A DNA stretch of 64,000 nucleotides from Kiritimatiellia bacterium (GCA_038330175.1 JBBQNS010000005.1:20-64019), one strand, 5' to 3'; counted from the first letter of the stretch, positions 15,886-49,679 are shown. Notes: a model not told the origin generated them from the letters alone. A program made the numbers and translations.

Positions 15886-16668
15886 CTATAACGCATGAAT
15901 AAAATCCTTGAACTGCAAAATGCGGTCGCTGTTGCTCCGATTAAATAGCAAATGCTCAAAATCTTTTTTCTTTTTCGGGAGGTTGACGGATTCTAGTTTC
16001 GTGTTGATCGCTGCTTTCAGTACCCGCAGATTGCTGATTCCGCATTTTGTAGTGAGGAATCCATAATCTGGCTTTGCCTGTCCCAGTAGAAAAAGAGCAT
16101 CGTAAAAATCGCGCCCTTTCGCCCTGCTCAAAAGTGCGGAAAGCTTCATCGCGCACAGCACGGCGTCCGTCGGCACGGGGAAGGAGAAGACAAGACCGCA
16201 TCCCTTGATCAATGCCAGATCCTTGGCATACGCCATTCCCTGATCCTGCGCCTCAAGCTTGACCATGAACCGCTCGTCCTTGTGGCCTGACAAACCAAGC
16301 TCAAATAAAAGCTCGGGGAAAATGAGGCTCTTGCGGAAGGCTGTCAGTCGGCTGCTCTCCTGCGCCTTCAGAACGGCGTTGAAGCCGCTACGGACAAGAA
16401 AAGACGACACCTCCTGTGACATCTGATCAAAGTCTTCAGTGGAAAAATCTTTGCAGTCAAAATCCAAGTCCTCGGAAAATCGGTCAATACCCTTGACTAA
16501 CCGCAGGTTCGTTCCACCGATAAACACAAGGCGCCGGATATAAGAAGTCGTGGACAAGAAATCAAGAATCAGCAACTGAATATATTCCTTCAGGATATAC
16601 TTTTGAAAACGTGCATCACCCGAAAGGGCTTGCGGATAGAACGATGTGATTGCAGAGAGTGGCATCAT
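15886..16668 (-). CDS. abiEii: nucleotidyltransferase toxin, AbiEii/AbiGii family (type IV TA / abortive infection)
   Basis: 260-aa ORF with AbiEii-like N-terminal NTase region (RLVFIGGTNLRL...DLDFD); 4-bp overlap with upstream antitoxin gene. Confidence 0.7.
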   Translation of the reverse strand: MMPLSAITSFYPQALSGDARFQKYILKEYIQLLILDFLSTTSYIRRLVFIGGTNLRLVKGIDRFSEDLDFDCKDFSTEDFDQMSQEVSSFLVRSGFNAVLKAQESSRLTAFRKSLIFPELLFELGLSGHKDERFMVKLEAQDQGMAYAKDLALIKGCGLVFSFPVPTDAVLCAMKLSALLSRAKGRDFYDALFLLGQAKPDYGFLTTKCGISNLRVLKAAINTKLESVNLPKKKKDFEHLLFNRSNSDRILQFKDFIHAL

Positions 16669-17300
16669 AACCGATAGACCTTTTTCAGCAGACGAACCCT
16701 TTGTTCAAGGGCATGCGAGTTAAACTTTTCAAGAAACGCCTCCAGGCGGTCAAGGCGGAGGTCGCTATGCAGGAGCTCGTCGTCTAGTCGCAACTGTTCA
16801 ATCTCCGCCTCTGTATCATAGAAAGGATAGAGGTAAAGGAGATCCAGAACAGCCTTCTCGCGCGTTGCGAAAGAGAGCGAACGCCCGTCCATGACCTGGC
16901 GCGGCTCATACCCGAACATTAGCCCGGGCTTCACGCTCTTGTACGAGAAATCCCCAAAGGCGTTTGTGAAGCTCGCCGTCTTGAGCGACGTCACGCTCGT
17001 GATCTGCACGACGGCTTCAGGGATGAGCCCGTAAAACGACAGCGCGGTATGCAAGCTGATATAGGACGGACTGTACATCTTTCCTGCGAAATAAGAGGCT
17101 GCGTCTGGCACCGCCTTGTACTCCGGAAACGTGTAAACTCCCTGACGTAGCCGAATAAGATAGCCCTTCCGTGTCCAGCGAACCATATTGTTGCGGTCAA
17201 ACTCGGGCTGCCATGCATACACCTGATGGATGTTGAAGCAGGCAAGGTTAAACATCTTCGCTCTAAAGGTCGTCCAGTTCATAATATTTCTAAAACGCAT
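16665..17300 (-). CDS. abiEi: AbiEi-family antitoxin / transcriptional regulator
   Basis: 211-aa ORF immediately upstream of and overlapping abiEii; AbiEi-like N-terminal wHTH region; probable true start MNWTTF at 17282. Confidence 0.65.
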   Translation of the reverse strand: MRFRNIMNWTTFRAKMFNLACFNIHQVYAWQPEFDRNNMVRWTRKGYLIRLRQGVYTFPEYKAVPDAASYFAGKMYSPSYISLHTALSFYGLIPEAVVQITSVTSLKTASFTNAFGDFSYKSVKPGLMFGYEPRQVMDGRSLSFATREKAVLDLLYLYPFYDTEAEIEQLRLDDELLHSDLRLDRLEAFLEKFNSHALEQRVRLLKKVYRL

Positions 17301-29087: not shown

Positions 29088-31130
29088 TCAAGGCAGAATA
29101 CGCACTTTTGCTTCACGATCCCACTGGCGCGTCTTGGCCGCGGCGATAAAGCCACGCGTATCCTCAACATCGACGACGCCACCATCGGATTCGACGCCGG
29201 CGGCACTCAGCAGCATCCGACCACCGTTATCGACGGCCATGGCCTTTAAGTGCGCAAAAGCATCGCTGACAAAATCCAGCGCCGCGCTTTCGCCTGTCAG
29301 TAGCGTGGCCGTTTCGTCCGACAAAACAACCGCTACCGCGTCAAACAACAGGGAAGGCAATCCGGAGATGATACCATCCGCAGCCAGCTTGGAGCCGTCG
29401 CTGAGTGTCGCACCGCCAACCTTGGGAGCCACGATCTTGAAAGCCGCGCCAGCGCCTTTAATCGCTTTTTGAATTTTTTTAATAGCCACCGCATCGGAGC
29501 CGTCACCAATGAGGATCGCCAACGTACGCCCTTCCAAAGTATCCTTCATCTTTCCAATTAATTGCAAAGCGGGCGACAGCTCCATATTGGTCACAGGTGC
29601 CGCTGTCTGAGGTGCCTCTGGCAAAGTTTCCATGCCTAATTGATTAGCCACGCGCTGCGCCAGATCCGCATCGATATGCCGCAGGTGTCCGACCATCGCC
29701 TCACGAACGTGCGGGTGATCGCACTTGGAGAACTCAAACACCATTGCCGCAGCGATATGCGTCTGTTCGTGCGGAGTTTGGCTGCGATAAAACTGACGAG
29801 CTTGGCTATAGTGATCGGCAAAACTTTCTGGCCGTGGGCGCCCCTTCGTTCCGCTCTCCGGGACAGTTGCACTGCGAAAACCACCTTTACCCACCTCACG
29901 TGGCGAAACAGCCGACAGCGAATTAGGTTCATAGGCGACTCGCCCCGTCTGTGGGGACATCTGCATATGGCCGTCGCGTTGATGGCTGCTAAACGGACAC
30001 TTGGGGGCGTTGATGGGAAGCTGGTGGAAATTTGGCGACCCCAGCCGCGACAATTGGGTATCCAGATATGAGAACAGACGCCCTTGCAATAGCGGGTCAT
30101 TTGAAAAATCAATCCCTGGAATAATATTGCCTGGGCAGAAGGCCACTTGTTCCGTGTCGGCAAAGAAGTTCTCCGGCCAGCGATTCAGCACCATCCGGCC
30201 TATTACCTTGAGGGGGACCAGTTCTTCAGGAATAAGCTTCGTCGGATCCAGATGGTCGATGGGGAACGCTTCGGCTTCTTTTTCGGTAAATAACTGTACT
30301 GCCAGCTCCCACTCAGGAAAATTCCCGGTCTTAATCGCCTCAAACATATCACGACGGTGGTAATCCGGATCGGCTCCCGATATTTTTACGGTCTCGTCCC
30401 AGATGGTAGACTGCAAGCCCAACTTGGGCCGCCAGTGGAACTTAACAAAGGTCGCATCACCGTCGGCGTTGATCAGTCGAAAGCTATGAATACCAAAGCC
30501 TTCAACCATCCGCAGCGATCGGGGCAGGGTCCGATCCGACATAATCCACATGACCATATGCATGGATTCGGGCGTCAGCGAGATATAGTCCCAGAAGGTA
30601 TCGTGGGCGGTAGCGGATTGGGGGAACGCCCGATCGGGCTCCATCTTGACGGCATGGACTAGGTCAGGGAATTTCATCGCATCCTGAATAAAGAACACCG
30701 GGATATTGTTGCCGACTAAATCCCAGTTGCCTTCTTTCGTGTAAAATTTAATGGCAAACCCACGGACATCCCGTGGCGTATCAATTGAACCAGCCCCGCC
30801 GGCGACGGTCGATATCCGTATAAAAATGGGCGTTTCTTCACCCACTTCAGTCAGAATTTTTGCGGTGGTATATCTTTTCAGCGAACTAGTGAGTTCAAAA
30901 AAACCATGTGCCCCTGTGCCGCGGGCGTGGACGACGCGTTCTGGAATGCGCTCATGGTCAAAGTGCATAATCTTTTCGCGCATAATGAAATCTTCGAGTA
31001 AGGCCGACCCGCGAGGATGGGCTTTGAGTGTGTTTTGGTCGTCAGCCAATTGCACGCCTTGATTGGTGGTCATCGGCGGGTGCTTGCCACCAGCGACTTG
31101 GTGGGTTTCACCCGTCGCAGACAAGGGCAT
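29088..31130 (-). CDS. katE: large-subunit (HPII-type) catalase, paralogue 1
   Basis: 680 aa; catalase core ([15 protein letters not shown], heme-binding region) plus C-terminal flavodoxin/DJ-1-like domain; ~80% identical to 41665-43821 product. Confidence 0.93.
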   Translation of the reverse strand: MPLSATGETHQVAGGKHPPMTTNQGVQLADDQNTLKAHPRGSALLEDFIMREKIMHFDHERIPERVVHARGTGAHGFFELTSSLKRYTTAKILTEVGEETPIFIRISTVAGGAGSIDTPRDVRGFAIKFYTKEGNWDLVGNNIPVFFIQDAMKFPDLVHAVKMEPDRAFPQSATAHDTFWDYISLTPESMHMVMWIMSDRTLPRSLRMVEGFGIHSFRLINADGDATFVKFHWRPKLGLQSTIWDETVKISGADPDYHRRDMFEAIKTGNFPEWELAVQLFTEKEAEAFPIDHLDPTKLIPEELVPLKVIGRMVLNRWPENFFADTEQVAFCPGNIIPGIDFSNDPLLQGRLFSYLDTQLSRLGSPNFHQLPINAPKCPFSSHQRDGHMQMSPQTGRVAYEPNSLSAVSPREVGKGGFRSATVPESGTKGRPRPESFADHYSQARQFYRSQTPHEQTHIAAAMVFEFSKCDHPHVREAMVGHLRHIDADLAQRVANQLGMETLPEAPQTAAPVTNMELSPALQLIGKMKDTLEGRTLAILIGDGSDAVAIKKIQKAIKGAGAAFKIVAPKVGGATLSDGSKLAADGIISGLPSLLFDAVAVVLSDETATLLTGESAALDFVSDAFAHLKAMAVDNGGRMLLSAAGVESDGGVVDVEDTRGFIAAAKTRQWDREAKVRILP

Positions 31131-35659: not shown

Positions 35660-36012
35660 CTTCGTCTCCTAGTTGATGAAACACCTGACACTCAGATTCG
35701 ATGCCGACTCACATTGATGAATGTCAGGAATAACCTACAAAAACGAGTGACTCTTTCCTATCGGGCTAAGGATCACTCTGCGGTTCGAAAAACCTTAGAG
35801 TTCCATGCAAGTTGGTGTCGCCTAATGTATATGTTCAGGTATACCCGCATGGAAACAACAAAATCAGAGCTGCCAGCGCAGACCACCGCTCCAATTGAAT
35901 TGGGAATGACATTGGTCGATCAGGGAAAAATCCTTGCGGCAGCAGGTAGCGAAGGCCGAAAACACCCTGGTTCCTGGGTGTCAGGCTGCGAACGCCAAGT
36001 AACCCTCTGGTT

Positions 36013-37086
36013 TTAGATCGGCTCGTAAAAATCAATTAGAGCGGCGAACGCGGAAAAACCAGCACCAAAGGCGAGGAGCATGCCGGTCTGGCCCGGTTGG
36101 GGTCGGCCCTTGTCCAGAATGTCCCGCAATACGAATAAGACCGAGGGAGATGACATGTTGCCAAAATTTTCGAACACACCGTAAGAAAACCGCAGTTTCG
36201 GCTTATCAAGATCCAATTGCTTGCCGACTTGTTCCAGCACGGCAGTGCCCCCTGGATGGACCGCCCACCAGTCGATGTCCTTCCGGGTTAGGCCATGCCG
36301 GGCCAGAAGCCGGGAGCCGACCTCGGCCGCAGTGCGCGCGCCGATGACGGGCACCCGCTTGTTCAAACAATTCCGCAGGCGCCCGCCTTCCGTGTGGTAA
36401 CGCAGGTCTTCCCGATACTGAGGATAGAGGCCGGACTCGAAGTCCACGATCCGCGCCAAGCCTTTTTGTGGGCGGTCTTCCTTGTACAGATCGAGAACGG
36501 CTGCCGCGGCGCCATCGCCGAAAATGGAATTACTCACCACCAGCCCGGGATCCGAACCGTGGAAAATGGTGGCCGAACAGATTTCCACCGCAAGGCTCAG
36601 CACCGGACCCTCTCCGCGCCGGGCCAGCATGCTGGCGGCGGCTTCGAGATTTGGAATGGCCGCCCCGCATCCCATCCCCATCAAGTCCAGGAAACGGATC
36701 GATGGGTTCAAGTGCAGGTCTTCGGCAACATACGAGGACAGGCCCGGGCACAAATAGCCGGTGCAGGTGTTGACGACCAGCCCCCGGATGTCTTCTGCGC
36801 GCACATGGGCATCCGCCATCGCCCGGCGCGCGGCCTCGACCGCCGTCGCACGCCCGAATTTCACAAAGCGCGCCAGCAGCCGGTCGGGATTGGTTTCGAG
36901 GGCATCCGTTTTGGCATCCATTCCCAGATAGCGGCCCTTGATCTTCCCGTCCAGAAGGATCCGGCGATACAATTCCTCTTCGGCCGCCGTCAAGGGCAGG
37001 TTTGCGGAAAGGAATTCGAAGGCTTCCTTCTGGGTGACATAGAACGGGGGTGTAGCGGTGCCTAGTCCTTTAATGATGATCGTCAT
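36013..37086 (-). CDS. type III polyketide synthase (chalcone/stilbene synthase family)
   Basis: 357 aa from MTIIIKG; catalytic Cys (MGMGCGAA), His (VHPGG) and Asn (FGNMSS) all present; start ATGA-overlaps methyltransferase stop. Confidence 0.85.
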   Translation of the reverse strand: MTIIIKGLGTATPPFYVTQKEAFEFLSANLPLTAAEEELYRRILLDGKIKGRYLGMDAKTDALETNPDRLLARFVKFGRATAVEAARRAMADAHVRAEDIRGLVVNTCTGYLCPGLSSYVAEDLHLNPSIRFLDLMGMGCGAAIPNLEAAASMLARRGEGPVLSLAVEICSATIFHGSDPGLVVSNSIFGDGAAAAVLDLYKEDRPQKGLARIVDFESGLYPQYREDLRYHTEGGRLRNCLNKRVPVIGARTAAEVGSRLLARHGLTRKDIDWWAVHPGGTAVLEQVGKQLDLDKPKLRFSYGVFENFGNMSSPSVLFVLRDILDKGRPQPGQTGMLLAFGAGFSAFAALIDFYEPI

Positions 37087-37799
37087 GAGTGACCTCCATG
37101 GATGTAGCGGACAACAACGGAAATTCGGAACCACCGGGCGGGCTCGACGGAAACGGAGACGTTGTCGAGCCGACCCAGTCCGGCGCGCAGTTCATGGACC
37201 TTGAAGCCGCGCCGGATCGAGAGCAGGGCATCGTGGCGCAGGCCGGAAGGGGTGCCCGCCAGCAACAGCCGGACGCCCAGACTCGCCAGTGCCGAGCGCC
37301 GTAGGTCGTTGATCAAGACGGCTTCGCGCACGAAGCCGCGTAGCTTTTGCACCAGATCGAGGATCTGCTCCTGAGTGAAATGGTGGAAGCACATCGACGC
37401 AATGGCGTAGTCATACGGTTCGGCCGGCTGGTGGGCGAAGACATCCTCGTGCAGCAGGCGCACTGCGGGATCGCCCGCCTGTTCCAGCTTCGCCCGCGCA
37501 ATGCGGGCCGCAGGGCCGGCCATTTCCAGGCAGGTGAAGTCCAGCGGCAGGGCGTGCGCCTGTCCCCAGAGGCTGAGCGCCAGCGGGATGTCGCAACTTC
37601 CGGATCCGATGTCGAGGATGCGGAGCGGCGAACCGGGCGTGCGCCTTGCAGCTTCGGCGGCCAGAAACCGGCGAACCACCCGGATGCCGCCGAAGTTCCG
37701 GTTGATCGTTTCCATGAATCGATAGCTCATGGCGGCCAGTTCCGGATCGCAATCCGGCCGGTCCAGAAATTCCTCTCCCTTGGCGCGTTCGTTAAACAT
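37083..37799 (-). CDS. class I SAM-dependent methyltransferase
   Basis: 238 aa; motif I ILDIGSGSCDIP; overlaps U32 gene by 8 bp and PKS by 4 bp. Confidence 0.75.
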   Translation of the reverse strand: MFNERAKGEEFLDRPDCDPELAAMSYRFMETINRNFGGIRVVRRFLAAEAARRTPGSPLRILDIGSGSCDIPLALSLWGQAHALPLDFTCLEMAGPAARIARAKLEQAGDPAVRLLHEDVFAHQPAEPYDYAIASMCFHHFTQEQILDLVQKLRGFVREAVLINDLRRSALASLGVRLLLAGTPSGLRHDALLSIRRGFKVHELRAGLGRLDNVSVSVEPARWFRISVVVRYIHGGHS

Positions 37800-39003
37800 T
37801 CCAGAGTGCTCCCGTGGCCATGCCGCTTTCCACCTCGGCGTATTGTTGCAGCAGCGCGTCGCGATAATCCGGTGCCACCGAGACGGCCTGCGCCGCGATC
37901 CGTTCGCAATAGCCGCAGTCCTTGCAGGCCAGGGTGGAGCAATCGCGGTCGCGAAAACCCTCCAGGAACCCTGCGGGGATTTTTCGCGAATCCACGCGGA
38001 TCGGACATTCCGCTTGCGAGGAGAGCATGCCCTGCCGTGACGCCAGATCGAAGATCGGCTTCAATTTGAGGGGACTGACCTGCCACGGCTTCAGGAAATG
38101 GCGCGCCAGCCAGAACCGCTCCTTCCGGGCCGGTTCCTTGAAGCCGTACGAGAGGAACAGTTCGGCGAGATTCCCGTCGAACTGCCGCTCGCTATACGCC
38201 TTGACCCGCCGCAGCAGTTCCGCCGAGGGAATGCCGCGCTCCAGCAGTTTGAAGGTCGTGTATCCCATGGCTTCATAGAACCCCAGATCCTCCGGCCGGA
38301 TCCAGGCGGCCTTGATGAACAGCGACGGATCCGCCAGGCGCTTACGCGAACAATGCAGAAAGCAATAGTCGATGAACAGGGCACCGGAGCCGCCCGATGC
38401 ATGGGCGAAGCCGTTCTGATGGTACACTTGGATCGGACAGTTCGGCAGGCAGACGTGGTTCGCAATTAACTGCAATTCGCAATGGACCGCTTGACGGATG
38501 GCGGCCAACCGGCGGAAATCCCGGTTGATGGAGAAACTCTCCAAAGTGATGGCGTCCGCCCCGAGGTCCTCCCAGAATCGGGCGCGCCGAGGGGTGTCGA
38601 CTTGCGCATAGATGCCGACCTTCACCTTGAATCCGGGAAAGCGGCGCTTGACCATTTCCAGCAGAAAAGGCGTGGAAACGGTGATGCGCCGCACACCCAG
38701 GTCGCCCAGTTTTGCCAGCAGGGAGGTCGCCTTCTTCTGCCAGGCCCGTGTCCATTCACGATTGTCGAAGCAGGAGCCGTTCAGCAGATAATTGAAGGCG
38801 ATGCCGTGGCGGTCGAGCGTTTGGATATAGTTCCGCAGTTCATGTTTGGAGAGGGGCGTAGCCAGGTAACGGGGCCGCCCGCCGCTGATGCCATCGGCGG
38901 GGAACTTGCCATACACCTCGTCGACCGGATAGACGCCAATCTGCGGAATCAAATCCGCGTCATAATTTGCTGCCAGCGAAAATTTGGTGCTTGGGGTGCT
39001 CAT
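37792..39003 (-). CDS. peptidase-U32-family protein (UbiU/UbiV/RlhA-like putative O2-independent hydroxylase)
   Basis: 403 aa; matches U32 core pattern: E-x-E/Q..C..C (CELQLIANHVCLPNC), second Cys pair (IDYCFLHC) and following ...DL...EAMGYTTFKL barrel strand; no N-terminal CxxxCxxC radical-SAM motif. Confidence 0.55.
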   Translation of the reverse strand: MSTPSTKFSLAANYDADLIPQIGVYPVDEVYGKFPADGISGGRPRYLATPLSKHELRNYIQTLDRHGIAFNYLLNGSCFDNREWTRAWQKKATSLLAKLGDLGVRRITVSTPFLLEMVKRRFPGFKVKVGIYAQVDTPRRARFWEDLGADAITLESFSINRDFRRLAAIRQAVHCELQLIANHVCLPNCPIQVYHQNGFAHASGGSGALFIDYCFLHCSRKRLADPSLFIKAAWIRPEDLGFYEAMGYTTFKLLERGIPSAELLRRVKAYSERQFDGNLAELFLSYGFKEPARKERFWLARHFLKPWQVSPLKLKPIFDLASRQGMLSSQAECPIRVDSRKIPAGFLEGFRDRDCSTLACKDCGYCERIAAQAVSVAPDYRDALLQQYAEVESGMATGALWNV

Positions 39004-39046
39004 TCTGAATTCTGACTTCTGGATTCTGGATTTATATCCAGTGCAT

Positions 39047-39685
39047 TCAAGGCGCCAAGCGTTCGATGGCGAGTAAGATGAAGCCCAGCAGGGGCACGAA
39101 TATTAGTAAAAAAACGGTGAGCCGCATGCCGAGCAGATCCGGCAGCATGATTTTGCCTCGATTGCCGATTTTCTGTAGGGTCGCGCCCAGATAGTCCGAC
39201 GTCTCGGCGAAGAGATAACTTCCTGCCATCAGGCCCACGATGCCGAAGATCGCATCGTAATTACCCTGACCCAGCGCCGCTGCACCCGTGCCGGGGCAAT
39301 ACCCCAGTAGGCCAAGTCCGACGCCAAAAATCAGTCCCCCCACGATATTGGAGACATAGCAGGTCGGCTTTACATGAAGTTTAACAAGCCCCATCGCGCG
39401 CATAGAGAAAATGCCAAACATCCCCACCGCAATCGCGGTAAGCATGACCTTGATCACCGTGAAGTCAGTCAGTAAGAACTGGCCCATCAACACTTCGTAC
39501 TTGCCCACGCCACCTTTCTGCAACAGGAAGCCAAACACGATACCGAACGTGAGGCCGAGAACGAGCTGGCGTGCGGAATCCGGCTTGTCCGGAGTGTCTT
39601 TTTCATCTTTCCCGTTATCCCGCGCCGGTAAGACGAGAACCGGCGGAACCGGGCTGTCGATTGGCTTGCCTGAATTAATGTTCAT
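39047..39685 (-). CDS. YeeE/YedE-family sulfur-compound transporter, half-protein B
   Basis: 212 aa multi-TM; conserved LGYCPGTGAAALGQG motif. Confidence 0.7.
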   Translation of the reverse strand: MNINSGKPIDSPVPPVLVLPARDNGKDEKDTPDKPDSARQLVLGLTFGIVFGFLLQKGGVGKYEVLMGQFLLTDFTVIKVMLTAIAVGMFGIFSMRAMGLVKLHVKPTCYVSNIVGGLIFGVGLGLLGYCPGTGAAALGQGNYDAIFGIVGLMAGSYLFAETSDYLGATLQKIGNRGKIMLPDLLGMRLTVFLLIFVPLLGFILLAIERLAP

Positions 39686-39694
39686 CGTGTGTCC

Positions 39695-40210
39695 TTAGAG
39701 GCGAAACAACAACATTGACGTGGAGACGGCGCCGATAAAAAAGCAGGCCAGCGCGATCCACGAGCTCACCGAAAGCTGAAGCGCGCCGCTGATTCCGTGG
39801 CCGCTGGTGCAACCGCCCGCGAGCCGGGCGCCATAGGCCATGATGGCGCCGCCGCCGAGCGCGACTCCCGCGCGCAACACAACAGCCGAGCCGAACCGCT
39901 CCTGCCAGAGGGCGGGAACCCACGTGGCGGTGATCTCCCCCCCGGTATAAGCCGCAATGAAGGCTCCCAGCATAATGCCGAACATTAGCATCACCTCCCA
40001 TTCGATCTTCGGCTTCTTCTCCTGATAGTACTTCAGCGTCTCGGTATGACCCTTGGAGAATAGGTTGCCGACGAGGCCCGCAAGGCGCGCGTAAGCCGTT
40101 GATACACCGAGCGGCTTATCCGAAAAGTAAAACGTCGCCATCGAAAGCACGCCGATCAGTGCCCCCACCAGATACGGCGACCATGCACCGCCTTCGTAGT
40201 CCATATTCAC
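39695..40210 (-). CDS. YeeE/YedE-family sulfur-compound transporter, half-protein A
   Basis: 171 aa multi-TM; conserved LAGGCTSGHGISG motif. Confidence 0.75.
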   Translation of the reverse strand: MNMDYEGGAWSPYLVGALIGVLSMATFYFSDKPLGVSTAYARLAGLVGNLFSKGHTETLKYYQEKKPKIEWEVMLMFGIMLGAFIAAYTGGEITATWVPALWQERFGSAVVLRAGVALGGGAIMAYGARLAGGCTSGHGISGALQLSVSSWIALACFFIGAVSTSMLLFRL

Positions 40211-40211
40211 C

Positions 40212-41624
40212 TCACTCCTTTTTTTTCGCTACAGCAGATTTCTCAAGCGGCAGCCCCAATTGTTCCCAGGCAGTGATGCCACCGAGCATGTTGTGAAGGC
40301 GTGAAAAACCGTGGCGCCTGAGAATGCTCACGGCGAGCCCTGAGCGGTGACCGACACTGCAGTGCACCACGATTTCGCTGTCCTTCGGCAACTGGGGTAA
40401 GTTCTCCTCCAAGTAGCCCACGAACTGGTGGATCGCTCCCGGAATATGCTTTTCGTTCCACTCATATTCGTCCCGCACGTCGAGCACGTGCACACGTCCC
40501 TCCTGCATCCAGTTTGCCGTCTCGAGAGCGCTCGTCGTCGTTATCGTTTCGATCGGCAACCCCTGCTCGTACCAGGTTTCGATGCCGCTGGTGAGCACCC
40601 CTTCCACCGAATCGATGCCGATACGCGCGAGCGACTTGAGGGCTTTCTCCGTATGCTCAGGGCTGTCGACGACGAGAAAGATCCGAGACTTCTCGGTGGC
40701 AACCCATCCGCCAAACGCAGGCATGCCAGCGAGCCAAATGTTGTAGGAAGCGGGGATATGCGCCCCAGCAAATGCCTCCGGATCCCGGGTGTCGATCACC
40801 ACCCCCTCTTTCATGCGCTTCTGAAACTCCTTGGGCTGAAGTACGTGAAAGGTCGGAGGCCACTTGAGCGGCCTGCCAGAGAGCAGGTTGACTTTTTCCA
40901 TATCGGAGAAGTATGGGGGGCGCGCCATTTTTTCTGCGAGCTTGTGCTTAACGAATCCATGGCGGCTTTTCTTGAAGACGGGATTGGTTCCCTTTTCGAT
41001 CCCCAGTGTCGAATCATCGCGGTCCGAAATGTTGCCGCCGCACGCCGAGCCCGCACCGTGAGCTGGGAAGAGTAGCGTCTGGTCGCCGAGCGGTCCGATC
41101 TGGCGATGAACTGCGTCATATAGGATGCCGGCGTTCTCGCCGGTCTTTTCCGGGTCAGTAAGATCCGTGCGGCCGGTATCTCCTACGAACAGCGTATCGC
41201 CGGTCAAGGCGCCCCAGCACTTTTCTCCGGCATCCTTTACGTAAACGGCATAAGTCACGCCTTCTGGCGTGTGCCCGGGTGTCTCGAGCGCTACGAAACG
41301 AGTCGTTCCCACTTTAAGTTCTTCACCGTCTTTGAGCTTCACGTCCGTCTTGCCGAACAGTTCGTGGCAACCGCTGACGATCTGCGCGCCCGTCATCTGC
41401 GCGATCGAGCTTGAGCCGAACTCGAAATCCTCCTGTCGATGGGTCTCAAGGACGTAGATGATGGATAAATCGTTCTCGCGTGCAAGGCGTAAATAGTCGT
41501 CGACGTCACGCCGCGGATCGACGACCACCGCGAGCCCTTCGCCGCAACCGATGACGTATGAGTTGTGTGCGAGCCCCAACGTTTTCAAACGCTGAAAAAA
41601 CATAATGCGTTCTTCTCCAAACAA
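40212..41624 (-). CDS. MBL-fold protein fused to tandem rhodanese domains (CstB/persulfide-dioxygenase-sulfurtransferase-like)
   Basis: 470 aa; MBL motifs (GHTPEG, FPAHG, GDTLFVGD) but motif 2 reads THRQEDF rather than HxHxDH; C-terminal rhodanese with active-site CSVGHRSG preceded by Cys-less rhodanese. Confidence 0.65.
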   Translation of the reverse strand: MFGEERIMFFQRLKTLGLAHNSYVIGCGEGLAVVVDPRRDVDDYLRLARENDLSIIYVLETHRQEDFEFGSSSIAQMTGAQIVSGCHELFGKTDVKLKDGEELKVGTTRFVALETPGHTPEGVTYAVYVKDAGEKCWGALTGDTLFVGDTGRTDLTDPEKTGENAGILYDAVHRQIGPLGDQTLLFPAHGAGSACGGNISDRDDSTLGIEKGTNPVFKKSRHGFVKHKLAEKMARPPYFSDMEKVNLLSGRPLKWPPTFHVLQPKEFQKRMKEGVVIDTRDPEAFAGAHIPASYNIWLAGMPAFGGWVATEKSRIFLVVDSPEHTEKALKSLARIGIDSVEGVLTSGIETWYEQGLPIETITTTSALETANWMQEGRVHVLDVRDEYEWNEKHIPGAIHQFVGYLEENLPQLPKDSEIVVHCSVGHRSGLAVSILRRHGFSRLHNMLGGITAWEQLGLPLEKSAVAKKKE

Positions 41625-41664: not shown

Positions 41665-43821
41665 TTAGGCGAGTGTTCGTACGGACTTCTCGCGATCCCA
41701 TTGCCGCGTCGTTGCAGCAGCGATAAATGCGACTTTGTTATTGGCATCTATGACGCCCGCGTCCTGTTCAACATTTGCTATTTTCAAAAGCGCGTGGCCG
41801 CCTTTGTCGACGGCGATTGCCTTAAGATGGCCGAAGGCATCGCGCACGAAATCGATTGCGGCGCTTTCCACCGATAGGGCCTTGGCACCCTCTTCAGAGA
41901 GAATAACGGCCACTGCGTCGAACAGGACCGAAGGCGTTCCCGCCAATTGTCCATCCGCCGGCAGCATCGAGCCATCGGCGAGTTTCGCGCCGCCGACCTT
42001 GGGCGCGACGATCTTCACGGCCGCCCCCGCGTCGGTCGCAGCCTTCTTGATCTTCTTGATGACCGTGCCATCTGAACCATCTGCGATTAGGATGGCGATG
42101 GCGCGCCCCTCAAGGGTGTTCTTCATTTTGCCGATGATCTGCAATGCAGGTGATGGCGCCATTTTCTTCACAGGCGCAGCGGCCGCCGGGGCATCGGGCA
42201 TCTTGTCGAACGTAAGGCCCGCCGCAACCCGCTTCGCCAAGTCCTCCTCTATGTGTCGCAGGTGTCCCACCATCGCCTCACGCACGTGGATGTGCTCAAC
42301 CTTGGAAAGCTCAAACACCAACGCCGAGGCGATGTGCGCCTGCTCATACGCAGTTTGGCTGAGATAAAACTGCCGCGCCTGACTGTAGTGGTCGGCGAAG
42401 CTGTCGGCACGGATGCGGCCCTTCTCGCCGGTGTCCACTACGGAAGCGCTATGGAAACTCTTCACCGGCGTTTCGCGCGGTGAGTTGCCGGATAAGGAGT
42501 TAGGCTCATAGGCAACACGGCCCGTCGGCTGTCCCATCTGCATGTGTCCGTCACGTTGCTGGTTACCGAACGGGCACTTGGGTGCGTTGATCGGGATCTG
42601 ATGGAAGTTGGCTGAACCCAGGCGCGACAACTGCGTGTCGAGGTAGGAGAACAATCGACCCTGTAATAGTGGATCATTTGAGAAATCGATGCCTGGCACC
42701 ACGTTGGCAGGGCAAAAGGCAACCTGTTCGGTTTCGGCGAAGAAATTGGCCGGCCAGCGATCCAGCACCATGCGGCCGATCACTTTTAATGGCACCAACT
42801 CTTCGGGAATCAGCTTGGTAGCGTCCAGATGATCGAAGGGGAATCTGTCGGCCTCCTCCTGCGTGAAGAGCTGAACCGCGAATTCCCACTCGGGAAATTT
42901 GCCCGCCGCGATGGACTCGAACATGTCGCGGCGGTGGTAGTCCGGGTCCGCGCCGGCAATCTTGACGGTCTCATCCCAGATGGTGGACTGCAAGCCGAGC
43001 TTGGGACGCCAATGAAATTTGACGAAAGTGGACTTACCTGCCGCATTGATCAGCCGAAAACTATGCACGCCAAAGCCTTCGATCATCCGCAACGAACGCG
43101 GCAGTGTGCGATCAGACATGATCCACATCACCATGTGCATAGCTTCAGGCGTAAGCGAAATGAAATCCCAGAACGTGGAGTGCGCGGTTGCCGATTGCGG
43201 AAAACCGCGGTCGGGTTCCATCTTGACGGCATGGATGAGGTCGGGAAACTTGATGGCATCCTGGATGAAGAATACCGGGATGTTGTTGCCGACCAGGTCC
43301 CAGTTGCCTTCCTTGGTGTAGAACTTGATGGCAAAACCGCGTACGTCACGAGGGGTATCCACCGAACCGGCGCCGCCTGCGACGGTCGATATGCGAGTAA
43401 ACACGGGGGTCTTCTCACCGACCTCGGTGAGTATCCTGGCGGTAGTGTATTGTTGCAACGAGGAAGTCAGCTCGAAGAAGCCATGCACGCCTGTCGCGCG
43501 CGCATGGACAATACGCTCCGGAATGCGTTCGTGATCGAAATGGGTGATCTTTTCGCGAAGGACGAAGTCCTCCAAGAGGGTCGGGCCGCGCGTATTGGCC
43601 CGTAGCGAGTTTTGATTGTCGGAAACGGGGAGGCCTTGATTGGTTGTCAGCACAGGGTGATCCGCGCCGGCGACCTGGTGCCGTTCCCCTCCACTTCCCA
43701 AGTGGCCTTCTTCGAGCGCAGCGGCAAAACCAACTTTCTTCTTATTGGTCTCTGTGCTGTTGCGGGCTTTTTTTTTCGTTTTCATGATACTACTTCCCTC
43801 CTGAAGTCGATCATCTCTCAT
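41665..43821 (-). CDS. katE: large-subunit (HPII-type) catalase, paralogue 2
   Basis: 718 aa; K-rich N-terminal extension; ~80% identical to katE paralogue 1. Confidence 0.93.
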
Positions 43822-43841: not shown

Positions 43842-44402
43842 TTAGAACCGCCAGTTGACCAGAACCATAGCAGGAGCCAGTTCATTTGGCAGACCAGTGA
43901 ACCAACTTGTGTTCTCACGGATAACATTAACGAGCCCGATCTGTCCGCCGCCAGGCACTGAATCTGCGATGTTCACTAGACCAAACTGCAAGCCTGTCAG
44001 GCGACCCGCGTAGTTCACGGCACCGAGTTGCAACCCCTCCATGGAGCCGCCGGTGTAGTTTACGGCGCTGAGAAGGACTCCGACGAGGGGACCGCCCTGC
44101 CAGCCCACGAAGTCGCCCTTCGTGTAGTTGACGAACGACCACTGCAGGCCCTTGTAGTTTTCGGCATAATTCAGTAGTCCGATGCTCAGTCCGGCGCTCT
44201 GTCCCGTAGATCCATTGACCAAGCCCACAGCCAACGCTGTTTGCGGATTTTCACCCCAGATGCTGAGACTCACCCCGTTGATCCTCTCGGTTCTGTCAAA
44301 TACAGCGATATCCGGAGTCAAACTGAGTTGCACCGGCTTGGGACCGGCCATGACTTCAGTCGCTGCCACAATCATCGCTATCCATACGAATGTTGTTTTC
44401 AT
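43842..44402 (-). CDS. secreted repeat protein (GLQxGxVNYA repeats), hypothetical
   Basis: signal peptide; 5-6 degenerate ~20-aa repeats. Confidence 0.45.
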
Positions 44403-46791: not shown

Positions 46792-47385
46792 ATGAAAACA
46801 TATCTAGGCGAACTACCCTATGCGCAGGCTGCTCTAGAACCCTATATCACCTCTAAGACGATGAGCTTCCACTACGGAAAACATCACCAAGCTTATGTGG
46901 ACAACCTGAACAAGCTCGTCGCCAATACGCCTTTGGCGGATCAATCGCTTGAAAAGATCATTTCCGATACAGCGGGCGCGGCGGACAAGGCGGCGGTTTT
47001 CAACAACGCGGCCCAAGTGTGGAACCACACCTTCTTCTGGCAAAGCATGAAGGCGGGAGGAGGAGTCGAGCCGACGGGAAAATTGATGGAGCGGATCAAG
47101 AAATCCTTCGGTAGTTACGCGGAGTTCAAGAGCGCCTTCGTGGCAGCAGGGCTCGCGCAATTCGGTAGTGGCTGGGTGTGGTTGGTACAGGAAGGTGAGA
47201 CCGTGAAGATCATCAAGACGGCGAACGCGGACACGCCCGTGGCACACGGGCAAACCGCACTCCTGACGTGCGACGTATGGGAACACGCCTACTATCTTGA
47301 CTACCAGAACCGGCGGAAGGATTTCCTAGAAACGTTCCTTGAGCATCTGGCGAACTGGGATTTTGCAGTATCGCAGATGAAGTGA
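46792..47385 (+). CDS. sod: Fe/Mn-family superoxide dismutase
   Basis: 197 aa; HYGKHH, DVWEHAYYLDYQN metal-ligand motifs. Confidence 0.92.
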   Translation: MKTYLGELPYAQAALEPYITSKTMSFHYGKHHQAYVDNLNKLVANTPLADQSLEKIISDTAGAADKAAVFNNAAQVWNHTFFWQSMKAGGGVEPTGKLMERIKKSFGSYAEFKSAFVAAGLAQFGSGWVWLVQEGETVKIIKTANADTPVAHGQTALLTCDVWEHAYYLDYQNRRKDFLETFLEHLANWDFAVSQMK

Positions 47386-48424: not shown

Positions 48425-48735
48425 AGAAAGCGAACGTTTTTGTAAACGGTCATTTGGCGGGTTGCCTTGAAGAATGGGAGCCGGGTCACCACTACAAATT
48501 CCGCTACCAAACCGACTATGAGGGCCCCCCCGTTTCCCTTACGATGCCCACTTCGGAATCTGAATATACCTACAACCGTTTCCCGCCTTTTTTCGACGGC
48601 GTACTTCCTGAAGGCATCATGCTGGAGGGGTTGCTCAAGCAGAATAAAATAGACCGGTTGGATTACTTCAGCCAACTGATGACGGTGGGGAACGATCTGG
48701 TTGGGTCGGTCACCGTGAAAGCGGTGGAATCATGA
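48421..48735 (+). CDS. hipS: HipS (HipA N-terminal subdomain-like antitoxin of tripartite HipBST)
   Basis: 104 aa resembling HipA_N coupling domain; stand-alone ORF overlapping hipT. Confidence 0.7.
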   Translation: MKKANVFVNGHLAGCLEEWEPGHHYKFRYQTDYEGPPVSLTMPTSESEYTYNRFPPFFDGVLPEGIMLEGLLKQNKIDRLDYFSQLMTVGNDLVGSVTVKAVES

Positions 48736-49679
48736 ACCGCTGCCCGATCACTTATGAAACCTGCGGAACCGATCGCTACTCACTGGCCGGTCTGCGCCGG
48801 CTGGCGCCGGGCCTGACCCGACTCCATGACTTCCCTTACAGCGCGGAAACCCAGCGGCGTGAAGCCACCCTCCGCGCCTCCAAGATGTCAATCCAGGGCA
48901 TACAGCCGAAGTTGAGCGTGACCCTGCGTATCAAGGCGGGCACATTCGAAATCGTGGATCGTGGCGGACGTTATATTATTAAGCCCCAACACGAACTTTA
49001 TCCTGAATTACCTGAAAACGAGGCTGTCACCCTGGGCATGGCAGGCCTGGTTGGTATCGAGGTTCCCGTGCAAGGCTTACTTTACTGTCAGGATGGATCC
49101 CGCTCATTTTTCATTCGGCGGTTTGACCGAACGGGACACGGCCAGAAGCTGGCCACTGAGGATTTCGCCCAATTGAGTGGGTTTAGCCGGGATACGAAAT
49201 ACAACTCCAGCATGGAACAGGTAGTGGAGGTCATCAACCGGTATTGTACGTTTCCCCTGCTTGAAAAGGTGAAGCTCCTGAAGCGGTGCCTTTTCAACTT
49301 TCTGGTTGGCAACGAGGATATGCACCTGAAGAATTTTTCCCTCATCACACGGGATGGCAAAGTTGAACTCTCGCCTGCCTATGATTTCCTAAGCACCACT
49401 GTGGCCTTCATGGCCATCGGTAAGAAAGCGGGAGATATGGAAGAGATCGCCCTGTCGATCAAGGGCCGGAAGAAAAAAATGAGTCAAACCCTGTGGCTTG
49501 ATTACTTCGCTGGAGAGCGCTTGGGCCTCAATCAAAATAGTGTGGTGGATTGCCTCCATGAATTGGCTACGGCCTTGCCGGGCTGCCGACAACTGCTGGA
49601 CATATGCTTCCTGTCGGACGCCCAGAAGCGACTCTACCATGACCTATTGGCTCAACGCGGCCAATTACTAGGTCTGTGA
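48732..49679 (+). CDS. hipT: HipT (HipA-like Ser/Thr kinase toxin lacking N-subdomain)
   Basis: 315 aa; HipA_C kinase core (catalytic ...VGNEDMHLKNFSL...). Confidence 0.8.
   Translation: MNRCPITYETCGTDRYSLAGLRRLAPGLTRLHDFPYSAETQRREATLRASKMSIQGIQPKLSVTLRIKAGTFEIVDRGGRYIIKPQHELYPELPENEAVTLGMAGLVGIEVPVQGLLYCQDGSRSFFIRRFDRTGHGQKLATEDFAQLSGFSRDTKYNSSMEQVVEVINRYCTFPLLEKVKLLKRCLFNFLVGNEDMHLKNFSLITRDGKVELSPAYDFLSTTVAFMAIGKKAGDMEEIALSIKGRKKKMSQTLWLDYFAGERLGLNQNSVVDCLHELATALPGCRQLLDICFLSDAQKRLYHDLLAQRGQLLGL

Follow-up and report, generated by a model that had tools for sequence, protein, structure and literature searches.

Alkylresorcinol-derived methoxy-quinones are formed by SrsABC from Streptomyces griseus, HidABC from cyanobacteria and Planctomycetota, and Pkq from Mycobacterium and Streptomyces, in each case with a flavin adenine dinucleotide (FAD)-dependent hydroxylase. 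The aerobic operons of cyanobacteria and Planctomycetota comprise a methyltransferase (MT), an FAD oxidoreductase, and a type III polyketide synthase (PKS) (PMC10896814), and the PKS-MT-hydroxylase operons of Streptomyces and Mycobacterium give rise to alkyl-benzoquinones that act as alternative electron carriers (PMC9927152). Here, we analyzed a 64,000-nucleotide (nt) stretch of DNA from a Kiritimatiellia bacterium (GCA_038330175.1 JBBQNS010000005.1:20-64019, referred to in its full length as the window) that contains a gene trio of comparable design. The three-gene operon with a type III PKS, a class I MT, and one tailoring enzyme is common to the trio and the described systems (PMC10896814, PMC9927152). 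The trio differs from them in that its third gene codes for a U32-like iron-sulfur (Fe-S) protein and not for a flavoprotein, in its gene order U32-MT-PKS with a kept 8-nt overlap, and in its hosts, which are mainly anaerobic lineages. It thus follows the logic of SrsABC/HidABC/Pkq with the U32-like Fe-S protein as predicted O2-independent hydroxylase, for which no earlier description was found. A literature search, with most subscription journals outside its coverage, retrieved no publications linking U32 proteins to type III PKSs.

UbiU and UbiV, together with UbiT, are the O2-independent hydroxylases of ubiquinone biosynthesis, and RlhA and TrhP are their paralogues. Prephenate serves as oxygen donor for UbiU/UbiV and is needed for RlhA (PMC10990095, PMC5727448); none of the U32 hydroxylases has been reconstituted in vitro so far (PMC10990095). 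In the window, the trio (module A) is located directly downstream of three genes of sulfur metabolism (module B), as follows (aa, amino acids).

36013..37086, minus strand: type III PKS, 357 aa, ATG start (internal ATG), Cys140/His277/Asn310; PF02797, PF00195
37083..37799, minus strand: class I S-adenosylmethionine (SAM)-dependent MT, 238 aa, 4-nt overlap with the PKS start; PF13649
37792..39003, minus strand: U32-like Fe-S protein, predicted O2-independent hydroxylase, 403 aa, 8-nt overlap with the MT start; PF01136
39004..39046, minus strand: 43-nt junction between modules A and B, with a palindrome and CAGAAT-like repeats
39047..39685, minus strand: YeeE/YedE half-transporter B (YeeE_B), 212 aa; PF04143, N-terminal half of the profile
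39695..40210, minus strand: YeeE/YedE half-transporter A (YeeE_A), 171 aa; PF04143, C-terminal half of the profile
40212..41603, minus strand: CstB-like metallo-β-lactamase (MBL)-fold (persulfide dioxygenase-type) protein with two rhodanese domains, 463 aa from ATG 41603

The initial annotation of this DNA had treated the six genes as one operon for a hydroxylated, methylated, and possibly sulfur-substituted phenolic lipid or quinone. Its description of six minus-strand open reading frames (ORFs) and their spacing was correct to within one base, and its domain calls agreed with both Pfam and NCBIfam for all six genes. With moderate confidence, we interpret the gene content differently, namely as two head-to-tail modules in an oxidative/sulfide stress island, where module A would be an anaerobic polyketide quinol/quinone route and module B a separate entity.

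The conservation of module A was analyzed in 80 genome loci from Lentisphaerota, Verrucomicrobiota/Kiritimatiellia, Desulfobacterota, Acidobacteriota, Gemmatimonadota, Planctomycetota, BRC1, and others, of which 62 had at least 2 kb of sequence downstream of the U32 gene. In 39 of these 62 loci, the MT and PKS genes directly followed U32, in 7 one of the two was present, and in 16 neither. A reciprocal set of 48 metagenome loci centered on PKS relatives with 60-78% identity contained the U32 gene in 45, the MT gene in 45, and both in 43 cases; the position of U32 was upstream in 45 of the 48. The U32 stop and the MT start overlapped by exactly 8 nt in 102 of 104 loci, and the PKS start coincided or overlapped with the MT stop in 90 of 103 loci and lay within 10 nt of it in 93 (extrapolated coordinates). 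A natural U32-MT fusion (P0073) was identified, and in the wider family a U32-like protein fused to a different MT (P0235). Judged from gene order, U32-MT-PKS is a genuine functional unit of mostly anaerobic phyla, tight and predicted to be translationally coupled.

The U32-like protein belongs to a very large and tight family: its best 120 database matches were all at least 73% identical, with Desulfobacterales, Opitutaceae, and Thermoanaerobaculia among the sources. The trio proteins, including the PKS, are approximately 75% identical across Desulfobacterota, Lentisphaerota, Verrucomicrobiota, Acidobacteriota, and other phyla, and the fractional identity within phyla (0.80) hardly exceeded that between phyla (0.77); this small gap speaks for strong constraint and, probably, horizontal spread. 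Members of a second type III PKS clade (~35% identical) pair with U32 in Verrucomicrobia with or without an MT. In two metagenome loci (L098:4687-7047 and L103:1581-3941), the PKS follows U32 at a distance of approximately 100 nt without an MT gene; because of these loci, the MT appears to be dispensable while the U32-PKS linkage stays.

The strongest support for a U32-like protein substituting a flavin hydroxylase came from two of the few close PKS relatives without U32, since these two carry a FAD_binding_3 gene. One locus (L150, PKS 68% identical) has the order PKS-MT-FAD_binding_3, and another (L166, PKS 61% identical) the order PKS-FAD_binding_3-UbiE/COQ5-type MT-MT. The FAD-type arrangement of SrsABC/HidABC/Pkq is thus found with PKSs 61-68% identical to that of the window, whereas no flavoprotein was found in the window gene string. 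Within one PKS clade, FAD monooxygenase and U32-like protein are therefore best described as a case of non-orthologous displacement. The earlier proposal of an srs-type logic with U32 in place of the flavin monooxygenase was reinforced by the cross-phylum trio, the 8-nt overlap, the fusions, and the two FAD-type loci.

Both CHS/STS domains of the PKS scored above the cut-off of 27 bits each (PF02797, 63.4 bits; PF00195, 33.7 bits). The catalytic Cys/His/Asn had been reported as intact, and alignment with the Pks11 triad confirmed this (Cys140 in GMGCGAA, His277 in VHPGG, and Asn310 in FGNMSS). The best solved relatives were Pks11 and Pks18 from Mycobacterium tuberculosis (E ~1e-38); they aligned end-to-end with the window PKS and kept the catalytic triad, but the match is distant, and starter and cyclization mode are not readable from it. 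The MT matched PF13649 with 31 bits and has a SAM motif (LDIGSGS) at residue 62; its score with NF004851 (PRK06202) was 122 bits, under that model's cut-off.

The assignment of the third protein to U32 held for the superfamily, as given by PF01136 and the fold; it did not extend to the canonical members, since the protein belongs to a distant subfamily with a non-canonical cysteine motif. The PF01136 match covers only residues 91-154 (profile positions 3-66 of 233), and members of the wider family cover profile positions 2-191. Comparison of the family profile with solved structures gave one convincing match, MK0906 from Methanopyrus kandleri (5d88, E=1.3e-11), a U32 'peptidase' without assigned function, and the U32 TIM-barrel-like fold was recognized. 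MK0906 has 254 aa; within the stretch that aligns, the Cys185/189 pair is missing, and the alignment stops before the C-terminal domain that bears the second cysteine motif of the window protein. The family profile reached 1910 clusters among 1.8 billion representatives; therefore, the large canonical U32 families probably lie for the most part beyond what it can detect. Because of this small cluster count and the marginal or null hhalign results with UbiU and UbiV, we regard the U32-like protein, at the level of sequence, as a distinct, distant subfamily and not as a UbiU or UbiV orthologue. Clustering with UbiU/UbiV beside ubi genes, a possibility raised in the initial annotation, was not seen, and neither SCP2/UbiT nor ubi genes were present in the window string or among the recurrent neighbors of the trio.

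In common with UbiU, UbiV, RlhA, and TrhP, the window protein belongs to the U32 superfamily, and its cysteines fall partly on the UbiV ligands. The U32-like family contains the motif Cys185-X3-Cys189-X24-Cys214-X3-Cys218, of which Cys185, Cys214, and Cys218 align with Cys180, Cys193, and Cys197 of UbiV; the latter belong to the [4Fe-4S] ligand residues reported for UbiV (PMC6747719). A second motif at the C-terminus, CX4CX2CX2C, is invariant in the family and additional to what is found in UbiU/UbiV. Binding of an Fe-S cluster via the variant motif is plausible, and two Fe-S sites per chain would correspond to the pair of clusters found in the UbiU-UbiV heterodimer. In contrast to this heterodimer, the window protein is a single 403-aa chain; there is one U32 gene per locus, without a UbiT/SCP2 partner and not beside ubi genes. 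RlhA/TrhP C-terminal domains were not found in the U32-like protein.

The U32-like family further resembles UbiU/UbiV in its genomic ties to chorismate mutase and prephenate-type metabolism and in its predicted phenolic, quinone-type substrate. In P0195 of the wider family, a 4-amino-4-deoxychorismate (ADC)/anthranilate-synthase-like chorismate-binding domain and a chorismate mutase are fused to a U32-like domain, and the gene follows a glutamine amidotransferase (GATase) gene. Homologues with 32-34% identity and the same cysteine motifs were found beside GATase and chorismate-binding plus CM_2 genes in Paenibacillus sp. M1 and in a Pseudomonas corrugata-like contig. The clusters (L172:6412-14116 and L173:6366-13442, respectively, and L171:2586-5953) have the order GATase, ADC-synthase-like plus chorismate-mutase fusion, 378-379-aa U32-like protein, thiamine pyrophosphate (TPP) enzyme, and aldehyde dehydrogenase. 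They resemble 4-amino-4-deoxyprephenate chemistry, and a U32-type enzyme with an amino-prephenate donor is a possibility. The repeated ties of the U32-like family to makers of prephenate-like molecules are consistent with the same co-substrate logic as in UbiU/UbiV, without being proof of it. Three other wider-family proteins (P0142, P0207, and P0239) carry a C-terminal DUF2621 extension.

From this gene content, we infer the following catalytic steps, product, and physiological role for module A. The PKS would condense malonyl-CoA onto an acyl starter, either a long acyl chain or a small head group for subsequent prenylation, to give a phenolic polyketide of the resorcinol, phloroglucinol, or pyrone type, which the MT would methylate. 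The U32-like protein, with one or two Fe-S clusters, would add a ring hydroxyl without O2, the likely oxygen donor being a prephenate-type molecule as for UbiU/UbiV. The predicted product, a methylated hydroxyquinol or quinone, would be the anaerobic equivalent of the SrsABC/HidABC/Pkq alkylquinones. Anaerobes exposed to O2 would likely use it as a redox carrier in the membrane or as an antioxidant. Module B may be co-transcribed with module A in this genome and would stand outside its chemistry.

We consider it improbable that the U32-like protein performs other prephenate-type chemistry instead of hydroxylation, by aromatizing or decarboxylating a cyclohexadienyl acid for use as starter or co-substrate, or by transferring a group other than hydroxyl. 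The Paenibacillus/Pseudomonas-like clusters, with GATase, ADC-synthase/chorismate-mutase fusions, TPP decarboxylase-type enzyme, and aldehyde dehydrogenase, do resemble amino-prephenate-derived aryl acid processing, and the lack of an in vitro reconstituted U32 hydroxylase (PMC10990095) leaves room for such a role. However, the trio contains no CoA ligase that could activate an aromatic acid as PKS starter, the FAD_binding_3 replacement in the sister loci favors hydroxylation specifically, and hydroxylation is the genetically linked function of UbiU/UbiV, RlhA, and TrhP. Hydroxylase activity of the U32-like protein remains the predicted function.

A quinol or quinone as product is favored by the genes that adjoin the trio in Victivallales and other Lentisphaerota. 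Here, an orphan prenyltransferase of the UbiA family, CydA, and CydB are encoded in a divergent operon next to U32-MT-PKS (L061:4677-7877, L066:3120-6606, L067:4469-7750, L068:3-1578, and L162:3-2369). The prenyltransferase is not a MenA, UbiA, or CyoE equivalog. Cytochrome bd requires quinol, and together with the UbiE-type MT in L166, the cytochrome bd neighbors speak for a quinol/quinone product. A glyoxalase/VOC-family gene is sometimes located between the UbiA-CydAB operon and the trio.

A more far-reaching proposal, which we put forward as tentative, is that U32-MT-PKS represents a widespread O2-independent route to an alkylated (prenylated where a UbiA-type gene is adjacent) polyketide quinol/quinone. 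It might serve anaerobes as electron donor to cytochrome bd and/or as membrane antioxidant upon O2 exposure, and the U32-like enzyme might be the first prephenate-dependent Fe-S hydroxylase in polyketide/natural-product tailoring. The trio is compact and highly conserved, occurs in more than 100 environmental loci, has a clear aerobic counterpart with an FAD monooxygenase in the same PKS clade, and offers a simple small-molecule read-out for U32 chemistry. If true, the proposal would reveal an oxygen-free route to hydroxylated phenolic lipids or quinones in strict or facultative anaerobes, could account for the quinol that supplies cytochrome bd in lineages like Victivallales, and would add an unrecognized tailoring-enzyme class to the genome-mining rules for type III PKSs.

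Module B encodes an MBL-rhodanese protein and a split YeeE. The former matched PF00581 with 97 bits and PF00753 with 24.5 bits and aligned over its full length with the PDB entries 3tp9 (Alicyclobacillus, E=9e-68) and 3r2u (E=1.6e-51), the latter with the database title 'Metallo-beta-lactamase family protein' only and presumably S. aureus CstB. It shares with these the architecture of an MBL and two rhodanese domains and the CxxxxR loop of the C-terminal rhodanese (HCSVGHRS, Cys415). In the MBL metal motif ETHRQEDF (H55-R-Q-E-D59-F), Gln replaces the second His of ETHIHADF, and His111 and Asp136 are kept; the H-R-Q-E-D-F variant, in place of H-I-H-A-D-F in CstB, is conserved in 105 of 120 MBL-rhodanese homologues (P0275-P0394). 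The protein is a putative persulfide dioxygenase-sulfurtransferase. YeeE_A (PF04143, 93 bits, profile positions 175-309 of 310) contains Cys134 in GGCTSG, and YeeE_B (59 bits, positions 7-149 of 310) Cys130 in GYCPG; matches to TsuA models were weak. PF04143 and one conserved cysteine per half are common to the YeeE/TsuA thiosulfate transporters, and in the window YeeE is split over two genes.

The nearest relatives of the MBL-rhodanese protein are 74-93% identical, and their named sources are aerobic Beta- and Gammaproteobacteria (among them Rhodoferax, Haliea, and Thauera). In all four contexts analyzed (L167-L170, homologues 78-84% identical), MBL-rhodanese, YeeE (169-171 aa), and YeeE (211-214 aa) formed a cassette on their own, surrounded by SoxYZ, sulfite-oxidase, TsdA-like, or thioredoxin genes, or by integrases; no U32, MT, or PKS gene was found beside it in any of the four. 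In L168, the cassette adjoins three integrase genes, which suggests mobility. Module B is a separate, ordinary reactive-sulfur cassette, putatively for detoxification, and was probably acquired horizontally.

That all six genes serve one pathway, in which the MBL-rhodanese protein and YeeE deliver activated sulfur into, or for, a sulfur-substituted phenolic lipid or quinone, we judge to be very unlikely. The idea draws on the tight packing on one strand and on the recurrence of the six-gene order MBL-rhodanese-YeeE-YeeE-U32-MT-PKS in a Kiritimatiellae metagenome-assembled genome (MAG; L025) and a Desulfosarcina MAG (L032); in a third locus (L125), the sulfur genes are located 4 kb downstream of the trio. 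The sulfur genes of these loci are only 33-58% identical to those of the window, which indicates that the association arose more than once. However, L025 and L032 are the only two of 58 genome loci with upstream sequence in which the cassette precedes the trio, and among 31 metagenome loci where at least 1.5 kb of sequence precedes U32, not one has it upstream of that gene. The closest relatives of the window U32 also lack it beside U32: L086 (91% identical) has a divergent gene 500 nt upstream of U32, in L084 (86%) U32 stands alone, and in L085 (82%) six Hyf/complex-I-like membrane hydrogenase genes precede the trio on its own strand at a distance of 105 nt (L085:556-7895). As a single occurrence, the Hyf-like hydrogenase was rejected as a respiratory link. 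Moreover, the trio is equally conserved without the cassette, in proteobacteria the cassette forms a complete, self-sufficient unit next to Sox, sulfite-oxidase, or TsdA genes or integrases, and the 43-nt junction between the modules lacks a Shine-Dalgarno sequence.

Sulfur trafficking as an integral part of the pathway, and with it a sulfur-substituted product, found no support in these data, and the six genes are largely not co-conserved, given the closest relatives and 56 of 58 loci. By comparative gene order, the six-gene 'operon' is the junction of two independently conserved three-gene modules. Because of the low number of loci and the 33-58% identity, their adjacency appears facultative. 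It is better explained by a common stress context at oxic-anoxic interfaces (O2, reactive oxygen species, and reactive sulfur) than by common chemistry. The locus illustrates that tight spacing alone can mislead.

Several observations weigh against the interpretation of module A as an anaerobic quinol/quinone route separate from module B. Pks11 and Pks18, the nearest solved relatives of the PKS, are long-chain alkylpyrone synthases, and alkylpyrones are not quinone precursors. The 16 U32 genes without nearby MT or PKS include an 86%-identical relative; therefore, the substrate may differ from a polyketide, or the partners may be unlinked. Horizontal transfer, and not an ancient core role, may account for the wide spread of the trio. 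L025, L032, and L125 exceed chance adjacency, and a functional or regulatory tie to sulfur metabolism is possible. The PF01136 match of the U32-like protein is weak (27.2 bits, cut-off 22.4), hhalign of the family with single E. coli sequences was poor for UbiU (E=0.009) and not significant for UbiV, and the canonical CX6CX15CX3/4C motif (PMC6747719) is absent, with CX3CX24CX3C in its place. Modification of RNA by the U32-like protein and the MT, in the manner of TrhP followed by a methyl or carboxymethyl transferase (5-hydroxyuridine, ho5U, and 5-methoxyuridine, mo5U) and with the PKS as a mere neighbor, is scarcely credible: the characterized single-chain U32 proteins RlhA and TrhP hydroxylate RNA (PMC5727448, PMC6599085), U32 occurs without MT or PKS in the 16 loci, and the cross-phylum identity of ~75% resembles housekeeping-level constraint, but U32 precedes the close PKS relatives with few exceptions, the PKS start touches or closely follows the MT stop in most loci, an FAD aromatic-ring monooxygenase substitutes in U32-less PKS relatives, the C-terminal domains of RlhA/TrhP are missing, and wider-family members belong to small-molecule clusters that also encode TPP enzymes and aldehyde dehydrogenases.

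The two modules are embedded in a set of stress-related genes, as had been noted for the catalases, and this setting recurs elsewhere. Two catalase paralogues flank the six-gene region, and a superoxide dismutase (SOD) and BON, YflT, DUF883, and BrkB proteins are encoded near the locus. The features in neither module are the following.

29088..31130, minus strand: second large-subunit catalase, paralogue (76% identical to KatE at 41665-43821)
41665..43821, minus strand: large-subunit catalase, KatE-type; PF00199 (591 bits) plus Catalase_C
43842-44402, same strand as KatE: 186-aa protein with LA_2272-family surface repeats (family name from Leptospira)
46792..47385, plus strand: Fe/Mn SOD

In a Bryobacteraceae MAG (L017:5836-9191), a catalase 86% identical to the window KatE is located directly upstream of a U32 gene without MT or PKS; because of this locus, the catalase-U32 adjacency is regarded as recurring independently of the sulfur genes. 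SOD adjoins the trio in eight loci (L004, L042, L060, L088, L104, L125, L128, and L131). Other recurrent neighbors of the trio or of U32 are ferritin/rubrerythrin-like, α/β hydrolase (18 loci), cupin, aldo-keto reductase, and UbiB-type kinase genes. The catalase, SOD, ferritin-like, and cytochrome bd/UbiA-type prenyltransferase genes around module A point to a polyketide quinol or antioxidant of anaerobic origin.

By sequence reading, the gap from the MBL gene to YeeE_A is 1 nt from a GTG start or 7 nt from an ATG start, that from YeeE_A to YeeE_B 9 nt, and that from YeeE_B to U32 43 nt, and the U32/MT and MT/PKS overlaps are 8 and 4 nt, respectively. For the MBL gene, a TTG at 41624 is open too; the ATG at 41603 is the more likely start since GGAG sits upstream of it. 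The distance from the KatE end to this ATG is 61 nt, and that from the end of the 186-aa repeat protein gene to KatE 20 nt, all on the same strand; the string therefore exceeds six genes. The spacing would permit co-transcription of the six genes. Shine-Dalgarno sequences were visible for five of them, with U32 alone lacking one. In the 43-nt gap before the U32 start, a perfect palindrome, CTGGATATAAATCCAG, at 39026-39041 is followed by CAGAAT-like repeats; it may act as an operator or form a small hairpin. The palindrome was not found upstream of U32 in close relatives, and no motif was common to the U32 upstream regions of the three closest relatives. A consensus scan of 35.2-44.6 kb, which is uninformative for this organism, gave zero promoters and no terminator in the 43-nt junction. 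The G+C content at third codon positions is high in the trio (0.71-0.77) and also in YeeE_A, so that the two modules cannot be told apart by it. Scans of the window for Rfam families and tRNAs gave no matches. In the 720-nt gap downstream of the PKS, tblastx and blastn revealed no conservation except for one 85-nt match to L025. This match (window 35866-35950, just past the PKS stop) is 75% identical to L025:151-234, distant from the trio of L025, and might represent a repeat, a small RNA, or a chance similarity.

Toxin-antitoxin-type genes flank the stress island at 15886-17300 and 48732-49679; they encode a nucleotidyltransferase toxin of the AbiEii type, which has a 211-aa ORF beside it, and a kinase resembling HipA. 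The region at 18.5-27 kb contains a complete chemotaxis cluster (CheA, CheW, CheR, CheB, and a methyl-accepting chemotaxis protein). Together with GSIII, GOGAT, and CarB genes in the window, the chemotaxis genes identify the stretch as chromosomal DNA.

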